NCBI GenBank assembly: GCA_026770705.1 | Contig: JANJGN010000071.1 | Location: forward strand, 2,294,001-2,358,000 | Source: Isurus oxyrinchus | Taxonomy: Eukaryota | DNA: 64,000 nucleotides | Direction: 5' to 3' | Part shown: positions 2,507 through 63,938 of the stretch, piece by piece | How positions within the stretch are numbered: position 1 is the first letter of the stretch | Layout: every line of letters begins with the position of its first letter | Translations under genes and position numbers: made by a program | Notes under the pieces: generated by a model | What the model was told of the DNA's origin: nothing | Database searches by the model: none | The model's input: the letters and a program-made list of their open reading frames with translations, nothing else

Positions 2507-2908
2507 TAAAGAACATTGTACAAATTGCACAAAATTTCATCTGATGCCTGTGTTAGATTTCAGGAAGGTTCTTAAAGTAGGATAGAGAGTTGGAGAGGCA
2601 GAGAGTATCTGTGAGTATCTCTGTGCATCTGAGTGTCTGTAATAGACTTTGCAATTTCTATATTCTTCCATAAATATGAAAGGGAACACAAATCCCAGAA
2701 TCCAGGTCAACTCTCCGGTGCAGCACTGAGGGAGGTCAGGTAATCCACAGGGGAGTATGTGCTAGTGTGTTTGTTTGTGAGTGTGTCTTTGTGTGTGCTC
2801 ATAGATGTGGGATTGTTTGTCTGCAGGTGTCTATTTAAGGCTGGATATTTATGTGTGTTTTTGTAGTGTTTCAATCTGAGAGAGATGTTGAAGTTTGCCT
2901 TAACTAAC

Positions 2909-3060
2909 GTTCCACAGTGATGGTTATGAACCCCTCCACTGCTCCATGTTCATTCTCTGAGCACACTGATAGTCTCCAGTGTCCCTGGATGTAACGTGAG
3001 GAATCCCCAACCACAGCTCATTGTTGGAACTTGTTCTGTTCATTGTGATATTCAGATGTC
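2909..3060 (-). pseudogene. Gene A: broken copy of the repeated Ig exon (3' half only, 1-nt deletion)
   Basis: Matches the 3' half of the gene B 282-bp exons (..NRTSSNNELWL..DTGDYQC..NEHGAVEGFITITVE) with donor kept; ctctgagcacactg versus ctctgccacacactg shifts frame; 5' half replaced by unrelated sequence. Confidence 0.85.
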
Positions 3061-3383: not shown

Positions 3384-3671
3384 CTTGCACAGTTAGTATG
3401 AGGGTCCGCTCCGATGAAACAGATGGATATCTCACTCTGCAGCTGAGAGTGTGTCCGTGGTGTTTGAGTGATGGGATCAGGGTCAGAACAGAAGTATAGG
3501 TCAGAGTGACACCATGCTGAGTTACAGTGTTTGAGACTGATCCAGGTACGTCAGTGGGAGTGTCCCAGGTTAAGACAGGTGCTGCTGTTCCATTGCACGT
3601 TGTGTTGAAGGTGCAGCTTACATCCACACGCTTTCCTGCAATAATTTCAGCAGGGAATATCGTGGGTTTAT
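3384..3671 (-). CDS. Gene A: Siglec C2-set domain exon (cryptic in-frame acceptor)
   Basis: DKPTIFPAEIIAGKRVDVSCTFNTTCNGTAAPVLTW...LSCRVRYPSVSSERTLILTVQ; CAG acceptor, GTAAG donor, phase 1-1; near-identical to 58530..58826. Confidence 0.85.
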
Positions 3672-4138
3672 CTGTGACACATGTGGAGATATTAGTGACA
3701 GCTGGCCAGAAGAGGTCGGTGTTATGGAAAGACAGAGAGAAAGAGACAGAGAGACACAGCGAGAGAGAGAGAGATAGGGAGAGGAAGAGGGAGAGGGAGA
3801 GGTTTAGGGTGGGAACTCTAGGGTGGTGAAAGGCGCTGTAGAAATGTAAATCTTTCTTCTGTCGATATGTCAGACTTCAAGACAGGATTTGAGAGATTGA
3901 TGGGAGTGGATAAACTGATAACATTGATAGACACAGTCAACACATTTAATCATTGATATTAAAGTAAGTATTAGAGGTTGCTTTAGGACTGAACTGGAAG
4001 CTATCATCAGGTTATTGAGAATCAGACAGTGTGTTATAATAACCTGTGTTTTGTGTTAATATGTAAACATCACAGTTTGTGTTATTTCCCATTGAGTGTT
4101 GAATGTGAATTGTTGAGTAATTATAACACAGCACTTAC

Positions 4139-4507
4139 CAGAAACGTGAAGCTGGGTTACAGGGTAATAGTTATAGCTCGGACCATTGTCAAATTCTATT
4201 CTGAAAAAATAAGGTCCTGCATCTTCCCGTCTGATGTTGTTTATAATCAGGGAACAGTCGCCATCTTTCAGGTCTCCAGACAGCCGGATCCGATGGTGGA
4301 ACCGTGGTAACTCGTGACTGTGATCCTTGGAGTGAAAGGCAATGGGAGCCCAGGGAATCTGTTTCTCATTATTAAACCAGACTCCACCTCGCGGTTGGTT
4401 TTCCAGACACGATGGATAACTGTAATGACATGGAATCTGTACACAGGAACCTTCCTGAGCTGTCACCTCTCGTGGAGTGTCACCTTTCCACTCTTGTGAC
4501 AGTCCAA
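4139..4507 (-). CDS. Gene A: Siglec V-set exon V1 (essential Arg present)
   Basis: 369 bp, AG/GT, phase 1-1; SCVQIPC, GDLKDGDCSLII, DAGPYFFRIE motifs. Confidence 0.93.
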
Positions 4508-4559
4508 CTGGGGAGAGAAATCTCAATATTTATCTCTGGATGGCTTGTGGATCCACTAG

Positions 4560-5350
4560 ACTCAAAATTTACAGATGAGGCTGAATTGGGGGATGGTCAA
4601 TACTGAGGAGAATGGCAACAAATTATTTTGGCAGGAAGAATAGAAAATCAGAATATTATTTAACTGGAGACAGGCTGCAGAATGCAGTACAGAGGGATCT
4701 GGGTGTCCTTGTACATGAATCACAGAAAGTCAGCATTCAGGAAAACCATGGAATGAGGAAGGCAAGTGGAATGTTGGCCTTTATTGCAAAGGGATGGAGT
4801 ATAAAAGGAGGGAAGTCTTGCAACAGCTGCACAGGGCGTTAGTGAGATTTTAACAGGATCATTGTGTGCAGGCAGTTCAGAGAAGCTACACTGGGCTGAT
4901 TCCTGGGATTAAAGGGTTTGTCCTGTGAGGAAATGTTGAGCAGGTTGGGCCGGTATCCATTGGAGTTTAGAAGAATGAGGGCTGACCTTACTGAAACATA
5001 TCCGATTCCGAGGGGGCTTGACAGGGTGGATGCTGGGAGGATGTTTCCCCCTCGTGGGGGAATCTAGAACCAGGGAGCACAGTTTTGGAATGAGTGCTCT
5101 CCCATTTAAGACTGAGATGAGGAGGAATTTCCTCTCTCAGAGGGGCGCTAGCCTGTGGAATTCTCTTCCCCAGAGAGCAGTGGAGGCTGGGCCATTGAAT
5201 AGACTCAAGGCTGAGTGAGGCAGGTTTTTGATCGACAAGGGAGTCAAGGGTTTGGGGGACAGGCAGGAAAATGGAGTTAAGGCAACAACCAGATCAGTGA
5301 GAGCATGCTCGAGGGGCCGAATGGCCTGCTCCTGTCCCTGTTTCTTATGT
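4560..5350 (+). mobile_element. CR1 LINE 3' fragment
   Basis: QRDLGVLVHESQKVS...MLAFIA...FKTEMRRNFLSQR..SLWNSLPQRAVEA plus 3' tail. Confidence 0.9.
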
Positions 5351-6418
5351 TCCTACATTCTTACCATCTTAAAATATTAAAGCTGCAGAATAAACATGCA
5401 AGTGACTGACCCGCTCGACCCACCTTCCATCTGGGGGTCCCATGGGGAGGACCCTTCCTGAGCCAGATCCACCAGCCAACATGGTCTAGATCTGAGCACA
5501 GGAGACACTGGGGGGAGTGACTAACAGGCTCCTTGTGACAGGCCCCGTCTGTCCAATGGCTGGCTTTCAGCTGCCAAGGCCAGAGTGGTCCTTGCTAAAA
5601 CCGGCTCAGGACAGGCCAGGACCCCTGTGCAGACCCCCTCCAGCGCTGCAGCCTCTGTACAAACCCCTCATGCGCTTGTGGAGAGACACAAACAAGGCTG
5701 CACATTACCGAGGAGAATCCCCTCTACAGACTAAGGTGCTGACTCATCACCCTAAACTCGGCAAATGAGGAGGCTCTCGCTCGGTATCGGGGCGTGGCAT
5801 TCGCTCAATAAAAATAATCAAATGACATTTGGTCAGAAATCTAAGGAGGTTGTACATTCCCTCAAAAATAAGACTCGATCTGGGGTCGAGAGTCAAAGGG
5901 CAACAACTTATATTTTCACAACAACTTTAACATGACAAATCACCCCAAGGTGCTACACAGGAGCGTCATAAAACAAAGTATGTCACCCAGACACGTGTAG
6001 ATATTAGCGACAGCTGACCAGAAGAGGTCGGTGTTATGGAGAGACAGAGATAAAGAGACAGAGAGAGAGAGAGAGGGAGAGATTTAGGGTAGGAACTCTA
6101 GGGTGGTGAAAGGCGCTGTAGAAATGTAAATCTTTCTTCTGTCGATATGTCAGACTTCAAGACAGGATTTGAGAGATTGATGGGAGTGGATAAACTGATA
6201 ACATTGATAGACACAGTCAACACATTTAATTATTGATATTAAAGTGAGTATTAGAGGTTGTTTTAGGACTGAACTGGAAGCTATCACCAGGTTATTGAGA
6301 ATCAGACAGTGTGTTATAATAACCTGTGTTTTGTGTTAATATGTAAACGTCACAGATTGTGTTATTTCCCATTGAGTGTTGAATGTGAATTGTTGAGTAA
6401 TTATAACACAGCACTTAC

Positions 6419-6787
6419 CAGAAACGTGAAGCTGGGTTACAGGGTAATAGTTATGTCTCGGACCATTGTCAAATTCTATTCTGAAAAAATAAGGTCCTGC
6501 ATCTTCCCGTCTGATGTTGTTTATAATCAGGGAACAGTCGCCATCTTTCAGGTCTCCAGACAGCCGGGTCCGATGGCGGAACCGTGGTAACTCGTGACTG
6601 TGATCCTTGGAGTGAAAGGCAATGGGAGCCCAGGGAATCTGTTTCTCATTATTAAACCAGAGTCCACCTCGCGGTTGGTTTTCCAGACACGATGGATAAC
6701 TGTAATGACATGGAATCTGTACACAGGAACCTTCCTGAGCTGTCACCTCTCGTGGAGTGTCACCTTTCCACTCTTGTGACAGTCCAA
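6419..6787 (-). CDS. Gene A: Siglec V-set exon V2 (essential Arg present)
   Basis: Duplicate of V1 with intact splice sites, DAGPYFFRIE. Confidence 0.93.
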
Positions 6788-6839
6788 CTGGGGAGAGAAA
6801 TCTCAATATTTATCTCTGGATGGCTTGTGGATCCACTAG

Positions 6840-7632
6840 ACTCAAAATTTACAGATGAGGCTGAATTGGGGGGATGGTCAATACTGAGGAGAATGGCAAC
6901 AAATTATTTTGGCAGGAAGAATAGAAAATCAAAATATTATTTAACTGGAGACAGGCTGCAGAATGCAGTACAGAGGGATCTGGGTGTCCTTGTACATGAA
7001 TCACAGAAAGTCAGCATTCAGGAACACCACAGAATGAGGAAGGCAAGTGGAATGTTGGCCTTTATTGCAAAGGGATGGAGTATAAAAGGAGGGAAGTCTT
7101 GCAACAGCTGCACAGGGCGTTAGTGAGATTGTAACAGGATCATTGTGTACAGGCAGTTCAGAGAAGCTTCACTGGGCTGATTCCTGGGATTAAAGGGTTT
7201 GTCCTGTGAGGAAATGTTGAGCAGGTTGGGCCTGTATCCATTGGAGTTTAGAAGAATGAGGGGTGACCTTATTGAAACATATCCGATTCCGAGGGGGCTT
7301 GACAGGGTGGATGCTGGGAGGATGTTTCCCCCTCGTGGGGGAATCTAGAACCAGGGAGCACAGTTTCGGAATGAGGACTCTCCCATTTAAGACTGAGATG
7401 AGGAGGAATTTCCTCTCTCAGAGGGGCGCTAGCCTGTGGAATTCCCTTCCCCAGAGAGCAGTGGAGGCTGGGCCATTGAATAGACTCAAGGCTGAGTGAG
7501 GCAGGTTTTTGATCGACAAGGGAGTCAAGGGTTTGGGGGACAGGCAGGAAAATGGAGTTAAGGCCACAACCAGATCAGCGAGGGCAGGCTCGAGGGGCCG
7601 AATGGCCTGCTCCTGTCCCTATTTCTTATGTT
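6840..7632 (+). mobile_element. CR1 LINE 3' fragment (duplicated copy)
   Basis: Copy of 4560..5350 within the tandem unit. Confidence 0.9.
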
Positions 7633-8182
7633 CCTACATTCTTACCTTCTTAAAATATTAAAGCTGCAGAATAAACATGCAAGTGACTGACCCGCTCGAC
7701 CCACCTTCCATCTGGGGGTCCCATGGGGAGGACCCTTCCTGAGCCAGATCCACCAGCCAACATGGTCTGGATCCGAGCACAGGAGACACGGGGGGGAGTG
7801 ACTAACAGGCTCCTTGTGACAGGCCCTGTCTGTCCAATGGCTGGCTTTCAGCTGCCAAGGCCAGAGTGGTCCTTGCTAAAACCAGCTCAGGACAGGCCAG
7901 GACCCCTGTGCAGACCCCCTCCAGCGCTGCAGCCTCTGTACAAATCCCTCATGCGCTTGTGGAGAGACACAAACAAGGCTGTACATTACCGAGGAGAATC
8001 CCCTCTACGGACTAAGGGGCTGACTCATCACCTTAAACTCAGCAAATGAGGAGGCTCTCGCTCGGTATCGGGGCTTGGCATTCGCTCAATAAAAATAATC
8101 AAATGACACTTTGGTCAGAAATCTAAGCAGGTTGTACATTCCCTCAAAAATAAGACTCAATCTGGGGTCGAGGGTCAAAGGG

Positions 8183-9945
8183 CAACAACTTATATTTTCA
8201 CAACAACTTTAACATGACAAATCACCCCAAGGTGCTACACAGGAGCGTCATAAAACAAAGTATGTCACGCAGACACATGTGGAGATATTAGCGACAGCTG
8301 ACCAGAAGGGATCGGTGTTATGGAGAAACTTAAAAGAGGGATGAAATGGTTAGTGAGAGAGAGAGAGTGAGTGTGAGGGATGGAGAGGGCTTAAGGCAGG
8401 GTATTACGGAGCTCGGTCCCCAGGCAGCTGAAGGCATGGCCACCGATGTTAGAGTGTTGAGATCGGGGGATGGTCAAGAGGCTGGAATTGGAGGAGCGCA
8501 GAGACCTCAGAGGGTTGGAGGGGCTGGAGGAGGTTACAGAGATAGGGAGGGTTGTAGGGTCTGGAGGAGGTTACAGAGATAGCGAGGTTTGTAGTGATTG
8601 GAGGAGTTATAGCGATAGGGAGGTTTGTAGGGGCTGGAAAAGTTAAGAGAGATTGGGAGAGTGTAGGGTCTGGAGGAGTTTGCAGAGGTCGGGAGGGTTG
8701 TAGTGACTGGGGCAGGTTACAGGGGCAGGGAAAGTTGTCGGGACTGGAGCAGGCTACAGAGATAGGGAAGCTTTTAGGGGCAGGAGGAAGTTACAGAAAT
8801 AGGGAGGTTTGTAGTGGCTGGAGGAGGTTGCAGAGATTGGTAGGTTTGTTGGGCAGGATGAATTTACAGATATAGGGAAGCGGTAGAGGCTTGAAGAGGT
8901 TACAGAGAATGGGATGGTTGTAGGTACTGGAGGAGGACAAGGAGATTACAGAGATAGTGAGGAAACAAAGATGAAAATTTGGACATTGAGACTTTGCTTG
9001 ACCAGGAGCCAGTCTCGGTCATCGAGCAGAGCGGGTGATAAGGGAACGGGACTTGGTGTGAGTAAGGATGTGGTCAGCAGTTTTGGATGGCCTCAAGTTT
9101 ATGGAGTGTAGAGCGTGTGTTGGAACAGTCGAGACTGGAGGTAATGAAGGCGTGGATGAGGGTTTCAGCAGCAGATGAGCTGAGACAGGGTGACGTCGTG
9201 CGATGTTACGGAGGTGGAAATAGACGGTGTTAGTGAGGGCGCAGATAGGAGGCCGGAAGCTCATCTCAGGATCAAATGGGACAACAAAGCTGTGAACAGA
9301 TTGGCTTCAATCTCAGAGAGCTGCCAAGGAGAGGAATGGAGTTGGTAGCGAGGGAACAGAGTTTGGAGCGGGGAATGAAGACAATGGCTTCAGTCTTTCC
9401 AATATTTAATTGGAGGGAATTTCTGCCCATCCAGTACTGGATGTCGGATAAGCAGCCTGATAATTTAGCAGCAGTGGAGGAGTCGAGAGAGGTGGTGGTG
9501 AGGTAGAGCTGGGCATCCTCAGTGGACAGGTGAAAACTAACACTGTTCAGATGATGCTGCAATGCCATTGCAAGTGATTCTCTGGCTACGATGAGATGGA
9601 TAAGAATGGAGCCAGGGGAGAGCAGTCCCACCCAGCTGGACGACAGTGGAGAGGTGTTGGAGGAGGATGGTGTGGTCGAGCGTGTCAAAGGCTGCAGACA
9701 GATCGAGAAGGACAAGGAGGGAAAGTTGACCTTTGTCACAGTCACACAGGATGCCATTTGTGACCTTGATAAGAGCTGTTTCAGCACAGTGGCTGGGGTG
9801 GGAACCTGATTGGAGGGATTCAAACATGGAGTTCCGGGAAAGATGGGAACAGATTCGGGAGATGGAAACAGGTTGCAGGACTTTGGAGGGGAAAGAGAGG
9901 CTGGAGATGGGACGGGGGTTTACACGGACAGTGTGAGGGGTGGAA
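8183..9945 (-). mobile_element. L2-clade LINE, decayed RT and 3' end, with internal ~34-bp minisatellite (about 8510-8955)
   Basis: RPISSLSFPSKVL, AETALIKVTN, LLVLLDLSAAFDTLDHTILL, QLNIGKTEAIVF, YFHLRNIAR motifs in minus-strand ORFs. Confidence 0.9.
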
Positions 9946-10191
9946 GGTGTAGTGGGGAGGAGATACTTCACTCAGGGGGCAGGTGTCATCACCCCTCAGC
10001 TCGGTTTATGTTACAGCTATGATGTGGATACAATCACACACAATAAGCTTATGGATCTGGGAGCAGAAATAGACAAATCATTAAAAATAGTGGCGCTGGT
10101 TAACACGGCCAAAAAACAAGCAGATCAAACACTATTATTTCCCATTGAGTGTTGGATGTGAATTGTTGAGTAATTATAACACAGCACTTAC

Positions 10192-10566
10192 CAGAAACGT
10201 GAAGCTGGGTTTCAGGACGGTCGTTGTATCTATTCCTGTTGTCAAATTCTAGGCTGAATAAATAATATCCTGCATCTTCCCGTCTGATGTTGTTTATAAT
10301 CAGGGAACAGTCGCCATCTTTCAGGTCTCCAGACAGCCGGGTCCGATGGTGGAACTGTGGTAACTCGCGATTATGATCCTTGGAGTGAAAGGCTATAGAC
10401 CGTTCATTCCATTTTTCCCAATTCCTTCTCATATACCAGATTCCGACTGGTGATCTCGCTACTAAATATGATGGATAACTGTAATTACATGGAATCTGTA
10501 CACACGAACCTTCCTGCGCTGTCACCTCTCCTGGAGTGTCACCTTTCCACACTTGTGATAGTCCAA
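10192..10566 (-). CDS. Gene A: Siglec V-set exon V3 (essential Arg replaced by Ser)
   Basis: 375 bp, AG/GT, phase 1-1; DAGYYLFSLE where paralogs have DAGPYFFRIE. Confidence 0.9.
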
Positions 10567-13289: not shown

Positions 13290-16200
13290 GCTTTCTATCC
13301 TTGTACATCTGTTCTCATGTCCCCATTGTAAATAATTGAACCCACAATGTATTTACCCAATTCCGTATCAGTGGCTGGTGCCTTTATATCATTATAAAAA
13401 CACAACATGGTGATCAGCGGTGGCCAAACATTCTGGCCGCAAGATTCAGTACAGGTATGACATGGTGAACAGCCTGAGATCGAGCTACATGACATGAGAT
13501 GACCCTCGACGCTTTGGTCAGACCACAACAGAGACACAGCATCAGAGAGGGTTGAAATCGCAGTGTACTGACTCTCAGGAAACCTTTGAAGACACAGTGA
13601 CGGGAAAGAGCTCAAGTAAAGAGCTGGGGAGCAGACGGATCCCTCGTGGTGGGATTACAGCACACGGCCTGTAGGTCAGTGAGTGGGATAGTGTGTATCG
13701 CCAGGACCAGCAGCGGGTTAGCTCAGTCAGGGAAGGCGAGTGACCAGGGTGTGGGCTGGATCGATAGTGAGCGAGGGAGATTCAAACACACAAAAACCAT
13801 TATAAAAATCAGCCCAGAGAAGTTAGTGATTATAACGGGCGGCTTCGAGATTGCTGAACAGCAAATTGAATAAAAAACAAAGACTCCATTACTCCGTGGT
13901 GTGTTCCTGCCGCAACCCATCTTCGTGGGCGGAGCTTCGGAAAAGCACGTGAAAGGGGCTAAAGCGACACTCATCCCAGGTCCTGTAGGAGAAGGAAGGT
14001 CAAAGGAATATTGTCAGAATGTCCACAAAATTCCCCAGTTTGAACTGGGATGTAGCTGACCGACTATCTGAATTCAGAATGTTTAAACAGCGTACAGAAC
14101 TCTGGTTTCCTGATTCTGGTGTGACTGAACCAGACGAACCACCCATAAAAATTCACCTCGCGATTGGGAATGAAGGTCTACACAGGCTGAAGACATCAGG
14201 ATTAACAGCAGAAGAGCGAAAGGATCCCAATAGACACGGACGGTATTGGAAGACAGGTTCAGAATCAGGTGAAACTCCAAATTCATCAACTAGAGTTTAT
14301 GTCATTTCATCAGCCGACACAATCCATAGACCACTTCATCAGCTGATGTAGAGAAAAGGGTACGCACTGTGATTTCAAACACAGAGCCTGCAGACAGAGT
14401 TGTTGAGTTGGCAATCGCATCCACTCCCATGGAAGCCTTCCAGAAAGATCTGCTAGATAAGACCAAAACCTATAGCATTGAAGAGCTACTCAAGGATGGA
14501 CATAAATACGAAGTAATCCTTGCAGGTCAACGAAGCTTACAGGTCCTCAGTACAACATCAATTGTTGACACACTCACTAGCACATCCAAACCTAGTGAGA
14601 CGTGTGGCAGGCACCAAGGAAATCCCCAGCTTTCCACCAATCCTGCAAGGCTTGTAGCAGAAAGGGCCATTGACAGCGGCAGGGCACTAGAGCAAAGGCT
14701 GATGCAGCTACAAAGAGCCGTGCGCTGATCCAAACAGACCCTACACAACGGGGAACCTTCAAGCAATAAGAATGACCATCCGCTATCCCATCAGGAACAT
14801 ATACATGTGGTGACTGACAAGCCAGGAAATGGCGATGATGTGCATGACGAGACGAGGTGCGGTGATCGATATTCCACCTCTCACACATATCCTGACGTGG
14901 CTTGCCAATAAATTGTGGATTGTTGTCCTTAATGATATCTCTGGGCACATCAAAGAAACTGAAAATGTCCCATAGGTGTTAGATTTTCTGGCCCCACCCA
15001 CTGCCAGGATTGTCCGGTCCGGCCGAAAGCCAATGGATTTATATTTGTCCCAATCTCCCACGGCAGGTCCCACCATGACTGGGCCGGAAAACCCCGGCTT
15101 AGAGTTTTTGCAACACTTGTGCTCAACGTATTGTGCAACTGTTGAACAATTTCACACCTATTACACCATCAATCTCATGGAGAACAGATGCCGTCACTTC
15201 ACCCGCACTATTGGCCAAGATTCCAATTATCTGCCCTGAGAAAGTTTCTACCTCCCCTTTATTGGCCAAGATTGATACAGGGACAAGTGCCAACATTCCC
15301 CTCCCCCAGCCCACCCCAGCAAATTTTCAAAGACATATATCCAAGGACATGGAATTCCATGGGGAAACCTACTGCTGTGTACAACACTTCACCAACTCCA
15401 TGTGCAGAATCCATAGTCCTAGAGTGCAAGTACAATCAATCTTCCTGGGTGTCACAGATGTTCTACATCGTGCAGAATAAAGGCTGAGCAATTGCAAGTC
15501 TACTGGCATGTGGTGACCTCACACTAGTGACAATCCATGGAATCTGTCAGACCTCACATGGGTCAACATCAGAAACTACCCCATCACCTCAGTTCATTGA
15601 CATAACATTGAAATATGCAGAAAGTTTCAACAATATTGGCAGTTTCAAGGGAGCTGCAACATTACACCTGCAGGAGAATGCAAGTCTGTCAATTGATCCA
15701 GTATATTTAGCACAACAGAAATGACAGCAGCTACAAAAGGGAACAGTGAAAAATTCTACAGGACCTGGGGAAATATCATTGAAAGGGTGGCCTGATTCAG
15801 CTTGACCTCATCGGGATAAGTGAGGCATCTCCCAGGGAACCATTTTTAATGGCAGGCAGGGCATCATACCGGAGCCTTTGTGATCCTATATTCTTCAACA
15901 ACTTCATCCCTCACACATTGGCACAGATCAGACAAGGAGACTCACAAGAGATATACTCCCTGGCCGGTTATGAAGAATGACCTTGAAGTCGTTGTAGGGA
16001 AGTACGAGGCTTGTCAAGAGGATGAGCCAAGTCAGCACAAAGAACCACTGATTCCACAGGAAATTCCTGCCCATTCTTAGTCCAAAATCAGGTCTGAATC
16101 CTTTCATTTCCATGTCACTGACTTCATCATCATCGTCGACAGCTTTACCAGATATCCCGTTATTCAAAAATAGCACAACACAACAAGCACAACTGGTGCA

Positions 16201-17200
16201 CACACTCTAAGCACTATTTTCAGTTTATTTGGTGAGCCTAGGGACATGATTACAGATAATCTGGAATATCAATCACACTACTTCTTCTCCTCATTACCCC
16301 AGATCTAACAGCCTCGCTGAATGAATGATTCACACAGTGAAATCCCTAATTCTCAAATGTAGACAGGCCAAGCAAGATCCACACATTGCAATGTTACATC
16401 TGAGATCGACACCTACAACTGCAACTTTGTTAAATTCATTCATGGGATGTGGGAGTCACTGGCCAGGCCAGGATTTATTACCCATCCCTAATGTAAGAGT
16501 CAACCACATTGACGTGGAGTCTGGAGTCACATGTCGGCCAGACAATTTTGTTCCCTAAACGGCACTGGTGAACCAGGTGGGATTTCCAACAATGGTTTTG
16601 TGGTCATTGCTAGACTTTGAATTTCATATTTTTATTAAATTCAAATTCCATCATCTATTATGGTCGGATTTGAACCCATATTCTCAGGCCATTACCCTGG
16701 GTCTCTGAATTACTCATCCAGCAACAATACCACTACACCATCACCTCACCTTATTCCATCACTGACAGAGAGCATGTTTGGTGGGCCAGTAGTGACCAAT
16801 TTCGCTACTCTTACCCATTCTACTCTCTCAGAAACCAGAGGGCAACTTTTAAAACTACAAGAGAAGATAAGGAATGTTCATGATAAAAATGGAGGTGCAG
16901 AGTTGCCAAGTTTACAGTTGGGACAAGTTCACATCCAGCATCCCACAGAAGGTTCATGACCACCAGCCGAGGTGACGAGGATTTGTTCAGAACCAAGGGC
17001 CTATGGAGTCAAACACACAAGGGCACAGCGGTGAGGCGGAACCGAGGATAAATCAGATCCATTCCCGCTCCTATTCCATCGAGGAGAAGATCCCACATGA
17101 AATCAGGAACAACATCCAAGGATGACAATCCCACAGATCACTGTGAGCAGTTAAAGACACCTCCGGACAAGGGAACCAGCACAAGATCTGGGTGGACAGA
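13290..17200 (+). mobile_element. Decayed Ty3/Gypsy LTR retrotransposon (gag, protease, integrase remnants)
   Basis: LTR-end CAACA followed by TGG PBS-like sequence at about 13408; gag MSTKFPSLNWD..RMFKQRTELWF; protease AKIDTG; integrase EACQ..KEPLIP and TVKSLILKC..DPHIAMLHLRSTP; many stops and frameshifts. Confidence 0.85.
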
Positions 17201-18162
17201 AGGTTGAATCCACACTTTAGAGACTCAAATATTCAACAGTTCCATGCACTTATGTAATTGTCAATAAATATGAACATGATATGAGAAACCGCTTGTTCCC
17301 TGCCCTTCTGAAAGAGCCATTCCTGCAGCAGGAGCCTGAAGAGTTACTGATAAGAGATTTAATTTATTGGATTGTAGAATGATCCGGAACTGAAGGAAGC
17401 CATTTGGCCCATCGAGCATGTGCTGGGCCTTTGAACGATCTGTCCAATTAGTCCCACTCTCACCTCTGATCTCTCCCCCACAGCCCTGCAAAATGTCCCC
17501 TTCAAATCAAATCAAATGTATACAACATAATAAAGCCTCTGTGGACACTATACAATTATTTTGAATTCCAGCTTTTCTAAGCTCATTAAAGCTGTTTTCA
17601 GGTTTGAACTAGAGTTAGACAATCAGCCCAATGTTGCTTCACAGAATGATTTGAAATTCAAGGTGAGAATGGACAGGAAGTGTGACACTGAACAGCCTGT
17701 CTATTCTAGGAGCTGCTGTGTTGTCTTCATGGGAAATTCTTTTTAAAATCAGCAAAAGACACAAATTTCAGATTATTGCTATCAGGATCCTAGAACCTGG
17801 ATCGATTTCATCCCCCAGTTTTTATCCCTGATTTTCAGCTCAACCCATCCCTCCCCATCTCTCACTGACCAACACCCGACATCACCTGAAGTTTAAGATT
17901 CTGCTCTCGCTGCTACAATTCTGCTAACCCTGTAACCTCCTCCAGCCCCTACAACCCTCTGAGATCTCTGCTCTCCTCCAATTCTGCTGTCAGACAGGGA
18001 GTCAGTGTATATCAGTGAGCACAGGGGTGATGGGTGAATGGGACTTGGTATGAGTTAGTACACTGGCTCACTGCTGAATCAGTTCCCAATCACAGCTCAA
18101 TAAGAATGATCTTTTACGAAGACTATTGACCATAAATCTGTCCAAGCTGACGATGATATTAC

Positions 18163-18202
18163 CTTGGAAAAGTGACAGGAAGAAGTAAGATTTCCCGATC
18201 AT
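18163..18202 (-). CDS. Gene A leader exon, copy 1 (MIGKSYFFLSLFQ, phase 1)
   Basis: 40 coding nt ending CAAG|GTAAT; upstream acceptor ctcctttctctttcag; in phase with the V exons. Confidence 0.85.
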
Positions 18203-18646
18203 TGTCCACTCATAGATATTCCATCAGCTTCTCACTCTGAAACTCTGAAAGAGAAAGGAGTTAATGAGACTTCAACTCTTGTCCGACAGCTCTCGAGAGA
18301 TCAGAACTGCTTTTAGACAATGTCTTCACAGACTAATTTGATTCTCGGTGGGATGATAGATGCTCTGCAGAGAGTTACAAGGTTTTAAGGAAGAAAAACA
18401 ATGAAGGATTTGCATTTCTATGCAACCTTTCACCTCCTCAGGGCATCCCAAAGCTCATGTCACTCCACTTCCCTCGCCCCTTGAGCTAGAAGGATGTTCT
18501 GTATGACAGACTTGACCCTCACACCCAGATCTCAATAATCATTAGAAATCTTTCAAAGGCATCAATCATTGGAATCTGTCTTCATAAAGTCACAACATCA
18601 ACAAAGGACGGTGTTGGAAGTGAATTCCAATCATTCCGTTACTTAC

Positions 18647-18800
18647 CCAGGAGCTGTCCGACTGCTCGCCTGGGGAGGAACTGCCCACACGCTCTGCTTG
18701 GGCTGAATGACCTCTTCCTGTGCTGCTCCCTCTGTGTATTTAATTAGAAAGAGCTGATATGTCACTGTGAGACAAAATGAGGAAGTTGGAACAAAGTGAG
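18647..18800 (-). promoter_or_regulatory. Gene A non-coding exon 1 and proximal promoter, copy 1
   Basis: Donor CTGG|GTAAGT at 18646; AT-rich TAAATA element at about 18740; GAGGAAGT (PU.1/ETS-type) at about 18779. Confidence 0.6.
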
Positions 18801-19923
18801 AGAACAGCACTTAGCTGTGCACTGTCAGTAAACCCTGTGTATGTATAAGAATATAAGAACAGAACAAGTAGGATCAGCTGGACACCCTGATATTTTCATT
18901 CCTTATATTCCATCAACTCATTTTTTTATCTACTCACTGAAACTATTTATCTCTGTCTGCAGCCTCTTTGTGTCCTCCTCACAACTTGCTTTCCTGCCCA
19001 GCTTATATATTTCCTACCTATCTTCACCATACAGTCAGAAAATCTGCCGACAGTACAGTCAGTCTCTTCATCCAAGTCACTAATGTAGATTGTGAATAGT
19101 TGAGGCTTTGAAATATCTGTCTAATTATTCCCACGCTCAGCTCTACTCTCTCCTCCAAAGCCCTGCAAAATGTCCCCTTCAAGTATTTATCTAGTTCCCC
19201 TTCTGAAAGTTCCTGTTGAATCTGCTTCCACCGCCCTTTCAGGCAGTGAGTCAATGGTCTCTCTCTGAGCTGCAAAGTGCTCAGATTCTGTGAAATTTAA
19301 ACTCTGCAGCAGGTCAGAGACACTCATGATAACTCAGAATATTTGACAGTTCTACACACAGACAGCTTTGCCTCCCTTCTCTCTTTCAGTTATCTTGCTC
19401 CCTTATCAAAGTATCTAGCATGGTGAGAATGGACAGGAAGTGTGACACTGAACAGCCTGTCTATTCTAGGAGCTGCTGTGTTGTCTTCATGGGAAATTCT
19501 GTCTAATATCAGCAAAAGACACAAATTTCAGGATATTGCCATCAGAGTCCTAGCACCTGGATATATTTCATCCCCCAGTTTTTATCCCTGACTTTCTGCT
19601 CAACCCATTACTCCCCGTCTCTCACTGACCAACACCCGACATCACCTGAAGTTTAAGATTCTGCTCTAGCTGCTACAATCCTGCCTAATTGTGTAACCGT
19701 CTCCAGCCCCTACAACCCTCTGAGATCTCTATTCTTCTCCAATTCTGCTGTCAGACAGGGAGTCAGTGTATATCAGTGAGCACAGGGGTGATGGGTGAAT
19801 GGGACTTGGTGTGAGTTTGTACACTAGCTCACTGCTGAATTAGTTCCCAATCAGAGGTCAATAAGAATGATCTTTTACGAAGACTATTAACCATAAATCT
19901 ATCTGAGCTGACGATGATATTAC

Positions 19924-19963
19924 CTTGGAGAAGTGACAGGAGGCAGTAAGATTTCCCGATCAT
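19924..19963 (-). CDS. Gene A leader exon, copy 2 (MIGKSYCLLSLLQ, phase 1)
   Basis: 40 coding nt ending CAAG|GTAAT; the upstream acceptor reads ctttcaa (AG lost), though a nearby AG may substitute. Confidence 0.75.
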
Positions 19964-20399
19964 TGTCCACTCCCAGATATTTCAACAGCTTCTCACTCTC
20001 AAACTTTGAAAGAGAAAGGAGTTAATGAGACCTCACCTCTTGTCCGACAGCTCTCGTGAGATCAGAACTGCTTTTAGACAAGACTTACTTGATTCTCCAT
20101 GGGATGATAGGTGCTCTGCAGAGAGTTACTAAGCTTTCAGAAAGAAAAACTATGTAGGGTTTGCATTTCTGTAGCACCTATCACCACCTCAGTATGTCCC
20201 AAATCTCATGACCCTGCACTTCCCTCATCCCTTGAGCTAGAAAGATGTTCTGTACAACTTGAGCCTCACACCCAGAACTCAATAATCAGTAGAAATCTTT
20301 CAAAGGCATCAATCATTGGAATCTGTCTTTATAAAGTCACAACATCAACAAAGGACAGTGTTGGTGGTGGAAGTGAATTCCAATCGTTCTGTTACTTAC

Positions 20400-20560
20400 C
20401 CAGGACCTGTCCGACTGCTCGCCTGGGGAGGAACTGCCCACACGCTCTGCTTGGGCTGAATGACCTCTTCCTGTGCTGCTCCCTCTGTGTATTTAATTAG
20501 AAAGGGTTGATGTGTCACTGTGAGACAAAATGAGGAAGTTGGAACAAAGTGAGAGAACAG
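20400..20560 (-). promoter_or_regulatory. Gene A non-coding exon 1 and proximal promoter, copy 2
   Basis: Donor GTAAGT at 20399; GAGGAAGT at about 20532. Confidence 0.6.
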
Positions 20561-20859
20561 CACTTTGCTGTGCACTGTCAGTAAACCCTGTGTCTGTATA
20601 AGAATATAAGAACAGAACAAGTAGGATCAGCTGGACACCCTGATATTTTCATTCCTTATATTCCATCCACTCATTTTTTTGTCCCCTCTCTGAAACTATT
20701 AATCTCCCTCTGCAGCCTCTTTGTGTCCTCCTCACAGCTTGCTTTCCTGCTCAGCTTATATATTTCCTACCTATCTTCACCACACAGTCAGAAAATCTGC
20801 CTACAGTATAGTCAGTCTCTTCATCCAAGTCACTAATGTAGTTTGTGAATAGTTGAGGC

Positions 20860-24505: not shown

Positions 24506-24704
24506 ACTGAATCTCTGTCCCCAATGACTCAGCATCAAGTCGTCACTGGGGAAACATTTCATTCCAAACCACACCAACCACAGACCCATTCAGTCCCTTC
24601 CTCCCTCTCTCCCCCTCTCCCCCAGTGGGTTGTCTCATGTTCCCAAGAATCTTCATCCCTGCCACCATCCACAAACCTCCTGACCACCTCTGCCTTTTTC
24701 ACGC

Positions 24705-24953
24705 TCAGTTTCTCTTGAATCTGATCTGTGCGTATTCCGTCTGCTCTTCCCTGTGGACAGACCCATCACCACTGGGCACCCTGAAGACTTGGGGATTGGC
24801 GTAGAGAAGCTCGTCGGGATTGTCAGGGTTCCCATGTCCAGCATCGCCTCCCACTGCACATTCAGAGACACCCCGGGGAGCTGGGGTCTCCCCCTCGCTA
24901 GTTGTGTCTCTGGTTGTGTTCCGGGGCTCAGTAATCAGCACGTTCTGTTTACC
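24705..24953 (-). CDS. Siglec terminal cytoplasmic exon, orphan copy (LLYANP, TEYAQI)
   Basis: 249 bp, acceptor tttctctgtag, phase 0, ends in stop; AATAAA at 24090-24095; paralog of 47302..47550. Confidence 0.88.
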   Translation of the reverse strand, partial: GKQNVLITEPRNTTRDTTSEGETPAPRGVSECAVGGDAGHGNPDNPDELLYANPQVFRVPSGDGSVHREEQTEYAQIRFKRN

Positions 24954-25099
24954 CTACAGAGAAATGGAAACAGAAGGCATCCTCACATCATTTACTGGCA
25001 CTGATAGGGTTAAAATATTCTGCAGCCTCGTTAGTGTCAGTCGTGGGTCAGTGGGTTTAACCCTCTCTCACATGTCTTATGAAAGAAAACACCTATGGC

Positions 25100-25378
25100 A
25101 GTGCAGTGCTCCCTCAGTACTGACCCTTCGATAGTGCAGCACTTCCTCAATGCTGACCATCCAACAGTGCAGCACTCCCTCAGTACTGACCCTCCGACAG
25201 TGCAGCGCTCCCTCAGTACTGACCCTCCAGCAGTGCAGCACTCCCTCAGTACTGACCCTCCGACAGTACAGGTCTTCCTCAGTACTGACCCTCTGACAGT
25301 GCAGCACTCCCTCAGTACTGACCCTCTGACAGTGCAGCACTCCCTCAGTACTGACCCTCTGTCAGTCTTGCACTCCCT
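25100..25378. repeat. 30-bp minisatellite array in the last Siglec intron
   Basis: CAGTGCAGCACTCCCTCAGTACTGACCCTC units. Confidence 0.95.
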
Positions 25379-25508
25379 CGGTAATGGCTCTGGCCAGTGT
25401 CGGCTTGGATTCTGCACTCAGGTGCCTGGTGTGAGGCTCAATAACATGAATCTTGTAATCAGAGAGAGGATGAGAGAGAGAGAGAGAGATGAAGGGTCAG
25501 AGACTGAG

Positions 25509-26266
25509 CGTTATGAATCTATTAATGCATGTATTGTAATTGGAAATTGTCTTTTTAAACAGCGGTTTAGTCTGTGGGTGTGTGTGTGTGTGTTTTAATT
25601 GGATTAAAGACAGCCGGTCTGAGTACTTTTATGTATAGTAGTTTTGAGATGTAAACAAAGAGGTAAAGAGGCATATTGCATTTTTAAAAGGAGGATTCAA
25701 AGCCTGGGAGTGAATTCTTAAACCAATCAATGTTTATATTACTAATAAAATTGATACTATGAAACGGGATTTATAGTTAGAAGAGATGGAGGTCAAAGGT
25801 CCTGATGATACAATGAGAATTTACATTCAAAGAGAAGAGCTGGGTATAACTTGAGCAGTTTTGTGTGTGCAGAGCAGAGGCTTGTAACATCAAAGCAGCT
25901 GTAAGCCTACACCTGTCTGCAAAGGAACCAAAGTGAAAGGAACCTCATTTGGAATTTCTGAGGTGAAAATGCTTCGCTTGGAATCTGCTTAAAGTCTATG
26001 GGTTGTCTTAGAGGACGTTAGTTTGGGAATTTGTTAAATAGTTATGATAATACTAGTTTGTAGCCATGTGCATATGATTAACTTGTGAAAATTAATAAAT
26101 GTCTCATGTAGTTTGATATAAACCCATCTCAAGAACTGATGGTCTTATTCCTGAATTTAGAGCTGCATCTCAAACATTCCACTGGGAAATATAGGTTATG
26201 ACAGTTGTTTAAAGTTTCCCTCTGGGATTTTAAACAACAGCCTTTACCAGTTGCTGTGTCATAACA
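25509..26266 (+). mobile_element. Solo LTR-like element in the Siglec tail intron
   Basis: Similar to 21057..21885, ends ATAACA; absent from the paralogous gene B intron. Confidence 0.7.
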
Positions 26267-26401
26267 GAGAGACAGCATGATACTGAACCATTGCTGACTC
26301 CACAGGTACAAATCAGTGGGTAACTGGGCTGGGAATCTGGGACATGTGTTGTCTACACACTGAGATTGAAGCTTTGGAGTGAGTGTAAACAGCTCCTGTA
26401 C

Positions 26402-26483
26402 CTGGTGTTTCACAGAGAGTGGACTGGGGGTCAATGCAATGTCACTGGTCCCTGAAACTCTCTCCTCCATCGCTGTCTTTCTC
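26402..26483 (-). CDS. Siglec membrane-proximal cytoplasmic exon, orphan copy (RKTAMEERVSGTSDIALTPSPLSVKHQ)
   Basis: 82 bp, phase 2-0, paralog of 48476..48557; no TM exon seen upstream of it. Confidence 0.8.
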
Positions 26484-26614
26484 CTGTAATAACAAAATAT
26501 CACACTGTGGTTATCATATAGCAGAGAGTCAGTGTAGCACAGACACAGAGCCCACTGTAATCTTAGACCAACGACTGGGACTGTCTCTTTAAATCAGTTC
26601 TATACAAAGCACAG

Positions 26615-27075
26615 AATCAAGAAGCTTGACACCATCCAGGACAAAGCAGCCCGATTGATCTACACCCCATCCCCCACATTAAACATTCACTCCCTCCACA
26701 ACGAACACACAGTGGAAGCAGTGTGTGTACCATCTACAAGATGCACTGCAGCAACTCAGCAAGGCTCCTTCAACAGCACCTTCCAAACCCACGACCTCTA
26801 CCATCTAGAAGGACAAGGGCAGCAGACACATGGGAACACCACCACCTGGAAGTTCCCCTCCAAGCCACTCACCATCCTGACTTGGAAATATATCATCGTT
26901 CCTTCACTGTCACTGGGTCAAAATCCTGGAACTCCCTCCCTAACAGCACTGTGGGTGTACCTACACCACATGGACTGCAGCGGGTCAAGAAGGCTGATCA
27001 CCACCACCTTCTCAAGGGCAATTAGGGATGGGCATTAATGCTGGCATCACCAGTGACAGCCACATTCGATGTAAG
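26615..27075 (+). mobile_element. LINE 3' fragment (same family as 340..660)
   Basis: KLDTIQDKAA..TIYKMHCSNS..KSWNSLPNSTVG..HHHLLKGN. Confidence 0.85.
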
Positions 27076-27402
27076 AATTAAAAATCTCACAGCTCAATGT
27101 ATTTATTGGGATCCTCCTGCACACACGCCCTGTCGAAGGAGCCTTTGTGGTTCCATTGTTAATCGAAGCAGATCAGACTTACTGCAACTACTTGCATTTA
27201 TATAGGACCTTTAATGTAGCAAAATGTCCCAAGGCTCATCCGGGAATTGTTAGTCACATCTTCACCTGACTCTGAGGCACATGAGGAGATATAAGGGACA
27301 GGAGACCAACAGCTGAGTCAACAAAGTCAGTTATTAACGGGCATCTTAAAGGAGGAGCTGGAGATAGAGAATGAGTGACAGACACAGAAAGAAAGACAAA
27401 GA

Positions 27403-27441
<39 letters not shown>

Positions 27442-27638
27442 TGAATCTCCATCCCCAGTGGCTCAGCATCCAGTCCTCTCTGGAGAAGCATTTCATTCCA
27501 AACCACAGCAACCGCAGCCCAATCGCATCCCTTCCTCCCTCTCTCCCCCTCTCCCCCAGTGGGTTGTTTCCTGTTCCCAGGAATCTCAATCACTACCCCC
27601 ACCCTCACACCTCCTCACTCCCACTCCCCATTTCTCAT

Positions 27639-27887
27639 TCAGTTATGCTCGAACCTGATCTGTGCGTATTCCGTCTCCTCTTCCCTGTGGACAGACCCAT
27701 CATCACTGGACATCCTCAATACTTGGGGATTGGCGTAGAGAAGGCCGTTGGGATTGTCGATGTGCCAATGTCCAGCATCGCCTCCCAATGCACCTTCAGA
27801 GAGACCCCGGGGAGCTGGGGTCTCCCCCTCACTAGTTGTGTCTCTGGTTGTGTTCCGGGGCTCAGTAATCAGCACGTTCTGTTTACC
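27639..27887 (-). CDS. Siglec terminal cytoplasmic exon (LLYANP, TEYAQI), downstream of the hepcidin-like exons
   Basis: 249 bp, phase 0 acceptor, stop codon, AATAAA at 27102-27107. Confidence 0.88.
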   Translation of the reverse strand, partial: GKQNVLITEPRNTTRDTTSEGETPAPRGLSEGALGGDAGHWHIDNPNGLLYANPQVLRMSSDDGSVHREEETEYAQIRFEHN

Positions 27888-28034
27888 CTACAGAGAAATG
27901 GAAACAGAAGACATCCTCACATTATTTACTGGCACTGATAGGGTTAAATTATTGAGCAGCCTCATTAGTGTCAGTCTTGTCTCAGTGGGTTTAACCCTCT
28001 CTCTCATGTCATCTGAAAGAAACCACCTATGGCA

Positions 28035-32807: not shown

Positions 32808-33090
32808 ACAAGGGGCTGAATGGCCTCCTCCTGTTCCTGTGTAATGGGCTTCAGTGGCTGAATGGCCTCCTCCTGTTCCTGTATAACGGACATAAGTGGC
32901 AGAATGGCCTCCTCCTGTTTCTGTGTAACAGTCTTGAGGGGGCTGAATGGCCTCCTCCTGTTCCTGTGTAACAGTCTCGAGGGGACTGAATGGCCTCCTC
33001 CTGTTCCTGTGTAACAGGCTTGAGGGGGCTGAATGGCCTCCTCCTGTTCCTGTGTAACAGGCTCAAGGGGCTGAATGGCCTCCTTCTGCA
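32808..33090 (+). repeat. ~40-bp tandem repeat derived from a CR1-type 3' tail
   Basis: About 7 units of GGGGCTGAATGGCCTCCTCCTGTTCCTGTGTAAC; compare the CR1 tail at about 5312-5345. Confidence 0.85.
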
Positions 33091-33099
33091 CTGTAAACT

Positions 33100-33365
33100 T
33101 GTTGTGATACTGTAACTGCCTCTTTGGTTTCATTCAGCTGAATCTTCAGCTCTTCAGTCTCTTCCTTGTATCTCTTGCCTTCCTCCTGGAACATTGGACA
33201 TGGTTGGGTCTTCCCTGCCAACTGTTTCTTCAGTTTGCTCAGAGCGGCACAGAATTCGCTTTCTTTCTCTTCAGGATTTTCCAGTGGAACCAACTCTGAC
33301 CTGAGGGACACTTGCAGCCTGTGAGGATGCTTCAATTCTTCAAACTCATTCCGAGATACACTCTC
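33100..33365 (-). pseudogene. Coiled-coil gene fragment, UACA/ANKRD24/RAI14-like
   Basis: VPLENPEEKESEFCAALSKLKKQLAGKTQ...EEGKRYKEETEELK resembles the UACA-family coiled-coil repeat as recalled; no own start or clear splice sites. Confidence 0.5.
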
Positions 33366-34462
33366 ATATTCCCCCAGCAACTCAGCAACTCCTCCAGTGA
33401 AACATTTCAGAGCAGCTGAGCTTGGTTTTCTGGAACCAGTCTCGGCCCAGAAGACTAGGGCCCTCACCTGTCGCTATGATCACTGGAAGCTGGGCTGTCT
33501 GCTGCCTGTAGGACACAGGTACTGGGATGAGGTCCTTTCCCTGTATGGATTCTCCAGTGTGTGTCTTCAGCTGATCCATTGTTGGCTCTAAATTCAGCGT
33601 CTGGGTTCCTTCATTTAGCTGTTTAAATGTGGGCTCTTCCACCACTGTGTCTGAGGCTCCCGTATCTGCCCCATTACTAGTGGCTGCCCATTCACTTGGG
33701 TTGTGATGGTTATAGGTTCAGTTTTTACCGCTGTGACATTGGACAGGGAATAGACATCGGTATCAGCAGCTTCAGGCTCTGTGATATTATTCACTTCCAT
33801 CATGTTGGTGCACTGTCTGATGGGCTGTCTCGATTTCACCCTGCATTGCTTTATTACCCACCCCTTTCTTGTGGCAGTGATGGCATTCTGCTCCCTTGAA
33901 CCTGCAGGTGTCCGGTACGAGCTCACTCCCCCCCACATCGAGAACAGGCCAACTTCGGAGTTGCTGCTGAAATACTCCCACGAAGCCTTTTAGTTTCTGG
34001 AGCGGCAGAGACTGTCTCTCGCTTGGCGGCTGTCTCTCTCTCTCTCTCTCCAGTTTGAGCCTCACGCCCGGTGGTTGTTTCCTGTCCCAGCTGAGGACTG
34101 GCGCCATGTTGCACATCCTGTAAATCCCGCCAGTCTCTCCCAGCACTTTCCATGCCTGGCGCTATTTCCATGGTGCGCTTCAAATCGATGTCGGCTTCTG
34201 CGAGTAAACGGCTCTGAATGGCGTTGGGGTGAACGACACAAACCAATCGGCCCCGCAACATGTCATTGAGTGTGTCTCCGAGGTCCCAGTGCTCAGTCAC
34301 CTGCTTCCACTTCACTGTATAGGTTGCGATGGACTCACCCGGCGCCCTTACTCTGGAGTTAAACTTAAACCTTTTCATTATTACCCACGGCTTCAGCTGA
34401 AAACACATCTTCATGAGGTCGACTAATTGGTGAAAAGATTTAGAATTGGGTGCAATGCACGT
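33366..34462 (-). mobile_element. Ty3/Gypsy gag-protease fragment
   Basis: KRFKFNSRVRAPGESIATY..LNDMLRGRLVC..IQSRLLAE; zinc-knuckle CSRCGG..CHHCHKKG; protease region VNGQPLVM..GPSLLGRDW. Confidence 0.9.
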
Positions 34463-34726
34463 CACTGTCTTCAGCTCTGAGACTGTCAATCCTCACCAAA
34501 CAATTCTTCCCTTCCAAGTCGCCGATTATTTTAGCACGTCCCACGAATGTGGGATCTTTGGTGTATGTGATGGTATATTTCCATCTATACCAATATTTAT
34601 ACCAAGCTCCGTGCAGTGCTGTGTAAGAGTGGGAAGGAAAGTCAAAGCTACACGGAATAACCACACAAGAGCTGCTGATGGCCCTCCGAGGCAGCGCCTT
34701 CATAGACCATCCCTCTGACTTGACTC
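34463..34726 (-). pseudogene. Gene C: MAG/sialoadhesin-like V-set exon truncated by Gypsy sequence
   Basis: Acceptor ctttcag, phase 1; SCVVIPCSFDFP..LHGAWY..FVGRAKIIGDLEGKNCLVRIDSLRAEDS then runs into gag before the F-strand Arg. Confidence 0.85.
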
Positions 34727-62608: not shown

Positions 62609-63466
62609 CAAGGGTCTTAAATTGTCTGATTGTTGAATGATACAACACAGGAGGAGCTTGTTTGACCCATCGTGCATGTGCTGACTCTCTCCCAATTCCT
62701 CTCCAGCACCTTTCGCACATCCCTGCAAATTTCCCTTCAAGTATTTATCCAGTTCCCCTTCTGAAAGTTCCTGTTGAATCTGCTTCCACCGCCCTTTCAG
62801 GCAGTGAGTCAATGGTCTCTCTCTGAGCTGCAAGGTGCTCAGATTCTATGAAATTTATACTCTGCAGCAGATCAGAGACAATCATGATAACTCAGAATAC
62901 ACAGACAGCTTTGCCTCCCTTCTCTCTTTCAGTTATCTTGCTCCCTTATCAAAGTTTCTGGCATGGTGTGAATGGACAGGAAGTGTGACACTGAACAGCC
63001 TGTCTATTCTAGGAGCTGCTGTGTTGTCTTCATGGGAAGTTTTGAATAAAGGCAGCAAAGGACACAAATTTCAGGTTATTGCTATCGGATAACTCTCATT
63101 AGGATAGGCTTCACCCACCAGGTTTTATCCCTGCTTCTCTATTCAATCCATCAATCCCGATTGCTCACTGACCAACGTCTGACAGCACCTGAATTTTGAG
63201 ATTCTGCTCTCGCTGCTACAAACCTGCCTATCCCTGTACACTCCTCCAGCCCCTACAACCCTCCAAGGCCTCTGCTGTCCTCCAATTCTGCTGTCAGACA
63301 GGGTGTCAGTGTATATCAGTGAGCAGAGGAGTGATGGATGAATGGGACATAGTGTGAGTTTGTACACTGGCTCACTGCTAAATCAGTTCCCAATTAGAGG
63401 TCAATAAGAATGATCTTTAACAAAGACTATTAACCATAAGTCTGTCCGAGCTGATGATGATATTAC

Positions 63467-63506
63467 CTTGGAGAAGTGACAGGAGGAAGTAAGATTTCCC
63501 GATCAT
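63467..63506 (-). CDS. Gene B leader exon (MIGKSYFLLSLLQ, phase 1)
   Basis: 40 coding nt, donor GTAAT, acceptor ctcctttctctttcag at about 63549. Confidence 0.88.
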
Positions 63507-63938
63507 TGTCCACTCCCAGATATTCCTTTAGCTTCTAACTCTGAAGTTCTGAAAGAGAAAGGAGTTAATGAGACTTCACCTCTTGTCCGAATGCTCTCGA
63601 GAGATCAGAACTGCTTTTAGACAATATCTTCACAGACTAATTTGATTCTCTGTGGGATGATAGGTGCTCTGCAGAGAGTTACAAGGCTTTCAGAAAGAAA
63701 ATCAATGAAGGACTTGCATTTCTATAGCACCTTTCACCACCTCAGGATGCCCCAAGCTCATGTCCCTTGAGCTAGAAAGATGTTCTGTACAACAGACTTG
63801 AGTCTCACACCCAGATCTCAATAATCAGTAGAAATCTTTCAAAGGCATCGATCATTGGAATCTGTCTTTATAAAGTCACAACATCAACAAAGGACGGTGT
63901 TGGTGGTGGAAGTGAATTCCAATCGTTCCGTTACTTAC

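Follow-up and report, generated by a model that had tools for sequence, protein, structure and literature searches.

The textbook Siglec has a single lectin V domain at its N-terminus and a stalk of C2 domains behind it. In Ig domains of both the V and the C2 set, the BC loop is found at the N-terminal end. In MAG, CD22, and CD33, the first two domains (D1 and D2) are joined by a disulfide whose donor Cys stands at the start of strand B of the V domain and whose acceptor Cys stands in the BC loop of the domain that follows. Excerpts of the respective articles report that the C37-C165 interdomain bond of MAG has been solved in a structure (PMC5150538), that the C39-C167 disulfide of CD22 is highly conserved among Siglecs (PMC5624926), and that C169 of CD33 is noted in the context of an interdomain disulfide (PMC7426717). 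General Siglec features are given in excerpts of PMC13358205 and PMC13324755, the excerpt of PMC8455134 mentions Siglecs once, and tandem V domains are already known from Siglec-12 (excerpt of PMC6288428). In paired Siglecs (Siglec-5/14 and Siglec-11/16), V domains that are nearly identical sit either on inhibitory tails of ITIM type or on short charged activating anchors.

The shark genes described here share the donor and acceptor positions of the D1-D2 bond, but their additional acceptor lies in a V-set domain (seven rather than six residues after the B-strand Cys, behind a longer linker), the arrangement is repeated in up to 10 V domains, and the bond is predicted whereas that of Siglecs is solved. 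They also resemble paired Siglecs, although the shark family has hundreds of V exons, homogenized also between positions within a gene, and its anchor residue is Arg. In a literature search that covered mainly open-access papers, we found nothing on shark tandem-V Siglecs or on a V-V disulfide. The D1-D2 bond and tandem V domains are known; the predicted V-V placement of a Siglec-type disulfide would be new, and the cysteine pattern is real and conserved. We consider it probable that the Siglec D1-D2 disulfide has been reused at V-V junctions, with as many as ten V domains in an array; the bond itself we infer.

On the minus strand of the stretch analyzed (64,000 nt of Isurus oxyrinchus, hereafter the window) lie gene A and gene B, both of them Siglec-like. 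Exon V1 of gene A (4139..4507, minus strand) encodes a Siglec-type V-set domain with the F-strand Arg and, as in Siglecs, Cys residues in strands B (IPC) and E (DCSL) and none in F (YFFRI). Its first Cys (GSCV, 4443..4445, minus strand) aligns with MAG C37, and the predicted partner is the Cys at +6 in the first C2-set exon (3384..3671, minus strand; VSCTFNTTC, Cys at ~3595-3597). An extra Cys in the BC loop, seven residues after the B-strand Cys (Cys+7; TGT, 4407..4409, minus strand), has the first Cys of V2 as its predicted partner. Exon V2 (6419..6787, minus strand) is a tandem duplicate of V1, with Cys+7 (TGT) at 6687-6689 and the first Cys at 6723-6725. The first V exon of the gene, V3 (10192..10566, minus strand), has its first Cys at 10502-10504, Tyr at +7 (TAT, 10466-10468), Ser where the essential Arg would stand, and a longer CC′ loop; the loss of Arg from an outer V domain recalls human Siglec-XII. 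For comparison, the single V exon of gene B (59686..60051, minus strand) has His at +7 (CAT). These codons agree with the earlier note, which had read IPCHYSYPSC in V1 and V2, PSY in V3, and PSH in gene B, and had placed the extra Cys at +7 and the C2 Cys at +6. Matches to the Pfam profiles V-set and Ig_CD22 exceed the cut-off. Upstream, the leader exon with ATG nearest to V3 lies at 18163..18202 (minus strand) and has a second copy at 19924-19963; the leader/promoter region (17659-20859) is duplicated with 91% identity, which gives gene A two ATG leader exons.

V1 and V2 (369 nt each, AG/GT, phase 1/1, open) differ at 5 nt and are carried by a 2.28-kb tandem duplication (3761..8326; 97% identical), which rules out two independent gains of the Cys. 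Because they represent one local duplication event, the window alone could not tell a pattern from chance.

Gene A is itself damaged. A 1.58-kb deletion with its junction at 2552..2553 removed the Arg-containing transmembrane exon present in close paralogs, and a second deletion took the usual acceptor of the first C2 exon, an altered context seen in 2 of the 106 C2 exons read, leaving an in-frame internal AG. The second C2 exon is a 5′-truncated and frameshifted remnant (2907..3060, approximate ends, minus strand). Three types of transmembrane exon were sought in the 26 kb downstream of gene A and none was found; its paralogs have either an ITIM-type tail or a charged transmembrane segment. 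Read-through from C2 reaches a stop after 16 more codons, and the 1.9 kb beyond that stop contain no poly(A) hexamer. We rejected gene A as an intact membrane receptor because the transmembrane exon and the C2 acceptor are deleted; it is most likely a pseudogene or otherwise nonfunctional, or at best a secreted copy of an activating-type member. Gene A lacks two Siglec features, namely the outer-V Arg (Ser in V3) and the type I anchor with an ITIM-type tail or charged transmembrane segment, and is filed as Siglec-like. The adaptation to tandem V architecture suggested by the earlier note is thus supported for the family and not for gene A, whose two deletions that note did not include. Elsewhere in the window, orphan cytoplasmic-tail exons lie at 24700-27910 (two ITIM-type, one short), with no transmembrane exon or intact ectodomain upstream of them in the window.

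A protein search of the I. oxyrinchus genome returned 1049 candidates and 150 scored matches (94-100% identity). V exons with the exact pattern number at least 448, comprising 246 with Cys, 162 with a first base other than T, and 40 with TH at the +7 codon. The exons in the window are members of a hugely expanded shark Siglec-like family. We read every V exon in context, 223 in total, over 1.43 Mb of DNA taken from the surroundings of the listed arrays of contig C52 and from 200 kb about the window; a V exon was called downstream if it follows another V within 5.5 kb. Cys+7 is present in 109 of 110 downstream V exons, in none of the 68 first-of-tandem V exons (leader out of view for 48 of them), and in 10 of 45 single V exons, counts that set the pattern apart from chance and confirm the earlier observation well beyond the window. 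Arrays reach 7 and 10 V exons, and in every case a single exon without the Cys comes first and all later ones carry it. The essential F-strand Arg is found in 107 of 109 downstream V exons and in 40 of 68 first-of-tandem V exons (missing in 28). The longest array, at ~2280500-2299900 of contig C52 (G000:C52; L051, L104, and L105), has at least 10 tandem V exons at ~2-kb spacing, and seven-exon arrays occur at C52 1871376 and 3539140. CC′ loops of first V domains are very variable and rich in Trp and Arg. The pattern lists also contained 30 "single Cys" and two "first Cys" arrays on C52, which we discarded as mostly an artifact of missed upstream exons; re-reading of these 32 found a non-Cys V upstream in 23, a leader in 8, and neither in 1.

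The earlier note had held that a common PSC motif in single-V paralogs would refute its proposal, but the Cys is uncommon among intact single-V genes. Nine of the 10 single-V carriers are broken: five have a stop in the V exon, three have lost the ATG, and one has a stop and a frameshift with no leader within 17 kb. Where the leader is in view, lesions occur in 8 of 9 Cys carriers vs. 10 of 42 noncarriers (Fisher's exact test: P = 0.0005, an overstatement since the carriers fall into three groups; 6 of the 10 noncarrier lesions are leaders unreadable by the search pattern and counted as lesions). The tenth carrier, a seemingly intact single-V gene (L010:3960-4340), has an additional Cys before strand F and four ITIM-type tail exons.

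Cys+7 offers a clean case of a single codon that resists exon homogenization. Among 107 close exons, differentiation between downstream and other exons peaks at nt 0-7 and nt 97-101 and does not exceed 0.31 at the other exon positions. The former peak reflects the end of the signal peptide vs. a polar linker, the latter the Cys codon and two silent neighbors. The polar linker, marked by a Pro codon at nt 5-7, has replaced the signal-peptide end in 75 of 109 downstream exons, and the signal-peptide end GLSQEW still opens the downstream exons of gene A. In 10 genes, the first and second V exons are 94-97% identical (11-22 of 369 nt differ) and are told apart consistently by just two short stretches, the exon start and the surroundings of the Cys codon, with nt 97, 98, and 101 differing in all 10 pairs and nt 99 in 9, although these pairs fall into four upstream-intron groups and hence represent few events and nonindependent copies. 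One pair retains 99.2% protein identity outside the exon start and the Cys spots. From this we infer exchange by gene conversion or by unequal crossover, combined with selection for the Cys. In a ranking of invariant codons, Cys+7 has one change in 109, and ~55 other codons are at least as conserved.

The association extends to other sharks and to rays. In 103 database proteins (automatic gene models, after removal of duplicates and nine partial domains), Cys+7 occurs in 34 of 45 V domains that follow a V, in none of 74 leader-adjacent V domains, and in 1 of 13 of unclear position. The survey of other sharks proposed in the earlier note thus finds Cys+7 together with tandem V in 11 species, i.e., Carcharodon, Cetorhinus, two Scyliorhinus, Mustelus, Chiloscyllium punctatum, Hemiscyllium, Rhincodon, Pristiophorus, Mobula hypostoma, and Hypanus. 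The Cys is kept among shark and ray domains that are only ~50-55% identical. Among 27 further proteins, none has Cys+7 in a V domain not preceded by a V; as a weak control, it is also absent from four V domains of one ray model in which a C2 comes directly before the V. The 11 after-V domains without Cys+7 comprise four ray domains that have a Cys in the CC′ loop instead, three in one seven-V model that may represent merged genes, and four without explanation.

Cys+7 is absent at two of the three V-V junctions of the ray four-V proteins. In Mobula and Hypanus (P0010 and P0013), V2 and V4 lack Cys+7 and have the CC′-loop Cys, which is missing from all 74 leader-adjacent V domains and from the ray V domains of the further set. 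Once this Cys is included, the Mobula V1-V4-C2 chain has an even number of Cys. The CC′-loop Cys could form a second, folded-back link between domains, or serve in dimers.

We also built a quick tree of elasmobranch V domains alone, with the +7 column removed. Domains group largely by lineage, and those with Cys do not form one group and change state at least 18 times, on a poorly supported tree in which 83 of 163 inner branches are open. A test on independent pairs yielded five supported pairs, with ~3 changing the same way and none the opposite way (P = 0.25).

Tandem V domains in tetrapods are a different case. A wide profile search added 133 new proteins, seven of them tetrapod Siglec-like proteins with two or three V-set domains before C2 (Xenopus, Pelodytes, Hyperolius, Leptobrachium, Bufo, Terrapene, and Rhinopithecus Siglec-12; names like "Siglec-12" are assigned automatically in the databases). 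They share the tandem V arrangement with the shark genes, but a BC-loop Cys is found in none of their 10 downstream V domains, so a tandem V does not need Cys+7. An eighth tandem-V protein, that of a lungfish, has the first Cys in none of its V domains and is excluded from the count. In the three-V protein of Bufo bufo (P0258), the first Cys is retained only in the V adjoining C2 and is lost from the two outer V domains; this loss would be the opposite way of avoiding a free Cys.

Both Cys of the Siglec pair are present here: in the alignment, MAG C37 corresponds to the first Cys of V, and MAG C165 to the Cys at +6 of C2. The solved relatives closest in sequence are MAG, CD33, and Siglec-5, with MAG the top PDB sequence match, and the shark V-C2 pair aligns with MAG, CD33, Siglec-5, and Siglec-10 both in sequence and in the model (3.5-5.0 Å on the same Siglecs). 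For the V-V pair, the AlphaFold model of a V-V protein with a transmembrane segment (P0017; mean pLDDT 65.8, pTM 0.47, linker 141-144 with pLDDT <50) superposes on D1-D2 of Siglec-10 with 4.4 Å over 208 residues (Z 13.9), on CD33 with 5.5 Å over 205 residues (Z 14.6), and on Siglec-5 with 5.1-5.5 Å over 200 residues. The fit to MAG D1-D2 is worse than to other Siglecs (8.0 Å). JAML and pIgR likewise have tandem V domains, but they lack the Siglec cysteine pattern and superpose with 7.8 Å; PD-L1 gives 11.2 Å and antibody pairs give 13-17 Å. The modelled V-V arrangement thus resembles Siglec D1-D2 and is compatible with the predicted bond, although in both models (V-V and V-V-C2) the V-V linker has pLDDT <50 and pTM is 0.47-0.49, and AlphaFold may take the Siglec pose from sequence likeness. 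In the V-V-C2 model, matches to Siglec structures span V-C2 only and not V-V, and a Foldseek search with the V-V model gave a listing filled by scFv matches. The V-V linker is ~4-6 residues longer than that of V-C2, and the Cys stands at +7 rather than +6.

Splicing was followed in four runs, i.e., contigs guessed to be RNA from two organisms. Among the matches listed, leader-to-V junctions occur in all four runs and V-to-C2 junctions in three, and a first alignment, which was swamped by repeats, showed the V-C2 joint only among its listed matches. One contig (run X1) links the end of a V exon of divergent sequence to the start of another V exon, precisely at their splice sites; its short side has 30 letters (the tool's bar is 31) and stops before the Cys codon, and it could be a circle formed by back-splicing. 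V-V spliced transcripts, on whose existence the earlier note had made its proposal depend, are represented by one short contig, next to V-V gene models annotated in 11 or more species.

From these observations we envisage the following arrangement. Where a Siglec has one V domain, the first Cys of that domain is engaged by the +6 Cys of C2, and another V domain inserted between the two would leave the first Cys of the upstream V free. Cys+7 lies in the corresponding loop of the domain that follows, at its N-terminal end, and would bond to the first Cys of the preceding V, while the first Cys of the last V would bond with C2 +6, such that a V(n)-C2 chain would pair every spare Cys. Each exon would then be a repeatable module, stapled to its neighbors, in arrays of up to 10. 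Cys+7 in the outermost V would have no partner and must therefore be missing there, and selection would remove it.

The exposed BC loop would equally allow Cys+7 to join two receptor chains, as covalent dimers or oligomers, rather than neighboring domains. The intact-looking L010 carries Cys+7 on a single V, and inner V domains of rays have another spare Cys, in the CC′ loop, away from the end of the domain that meets the preceding V. A dimerizing Cys, however, needs no V in front of it, yet Cys+7 is found in 0/68 first-of-tandem and 0/74 leader-adjacent V domains, and the first Cys of every upstream V would stay unpaired; bonding between chains is unlikely. A functionless Cys, derived from one old substitution in an internal exon and spread by duplication through drift or hitchhiking, requires a single base change. 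The copies found in this genome arose very recently and do not count as independent, the silent neighbors at nt 97 and 101 also track position, the tree test is not significant, and tetrapod tandem-V proteins manage without the Cys. Against drift, the Cys has been kept across sharks and rays despite their divergence, within lineages the rest of the exon has moved back and forth between the first and the later positions, and first-position carriers are mostly broken, and we give drift or hitchhiking only a slender chance. The tandem V exons might instead be alternative cassettes or relics that are never joined head to tail, with the Cys serving, e.g., a bond to another partner. The signal-peptide end kept by the downstream exons of gene A fits this, as does the detection of leader-V and V-C2 junctions in several runs but of V-V in a single contig. 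Most downstream exons, however, have exchanged that end for a polar linker, all downstream exons are of phase 1/1, and V-V gene models and one V-V junction exist, which makes alternative cassettes very improbable.

A disulfide between consecutive V domains, which we prefer, leads to a wider and more tentative proposal. One exon carrying both disulfide halves, multiplied by unequal crossover, might have produced covalently stiffened rods with up to ten Arg-bearing lectin domains and an unstapled, hypervariable tip often without the sialic-acid Arg, and rays might have a second, CC′-loop staple; as a whole this is possible, though we would not yet favor it. With its hundreds of V exons, its arrays of as many as ten, and a Cys tied to position and retained in sharks and rays, this family would illustrate how a multi-V lectin receptor is assembled and lengthened, and it could inform the design of multivalent lectins or of stacked V-domain proteins.

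Gene B (47300-63510) looks intact at the exon level, with a leader, a single V, a C2 exon, a second-C2 exon repeated seven times in tandem (~1 kb apart), a transmembrane exon, and an ITIM-type tail. At 34440-34720 lies a truncated, more distant kind of V exon, which resembles the first V of protein P0033. The remaining features of the window include what we take, by eye, to be decayed retroelement-like reading frames and LINE/SINE-like fragments, at ~13900-16600, at 33000-34500, and in the introns at 4560-10100.
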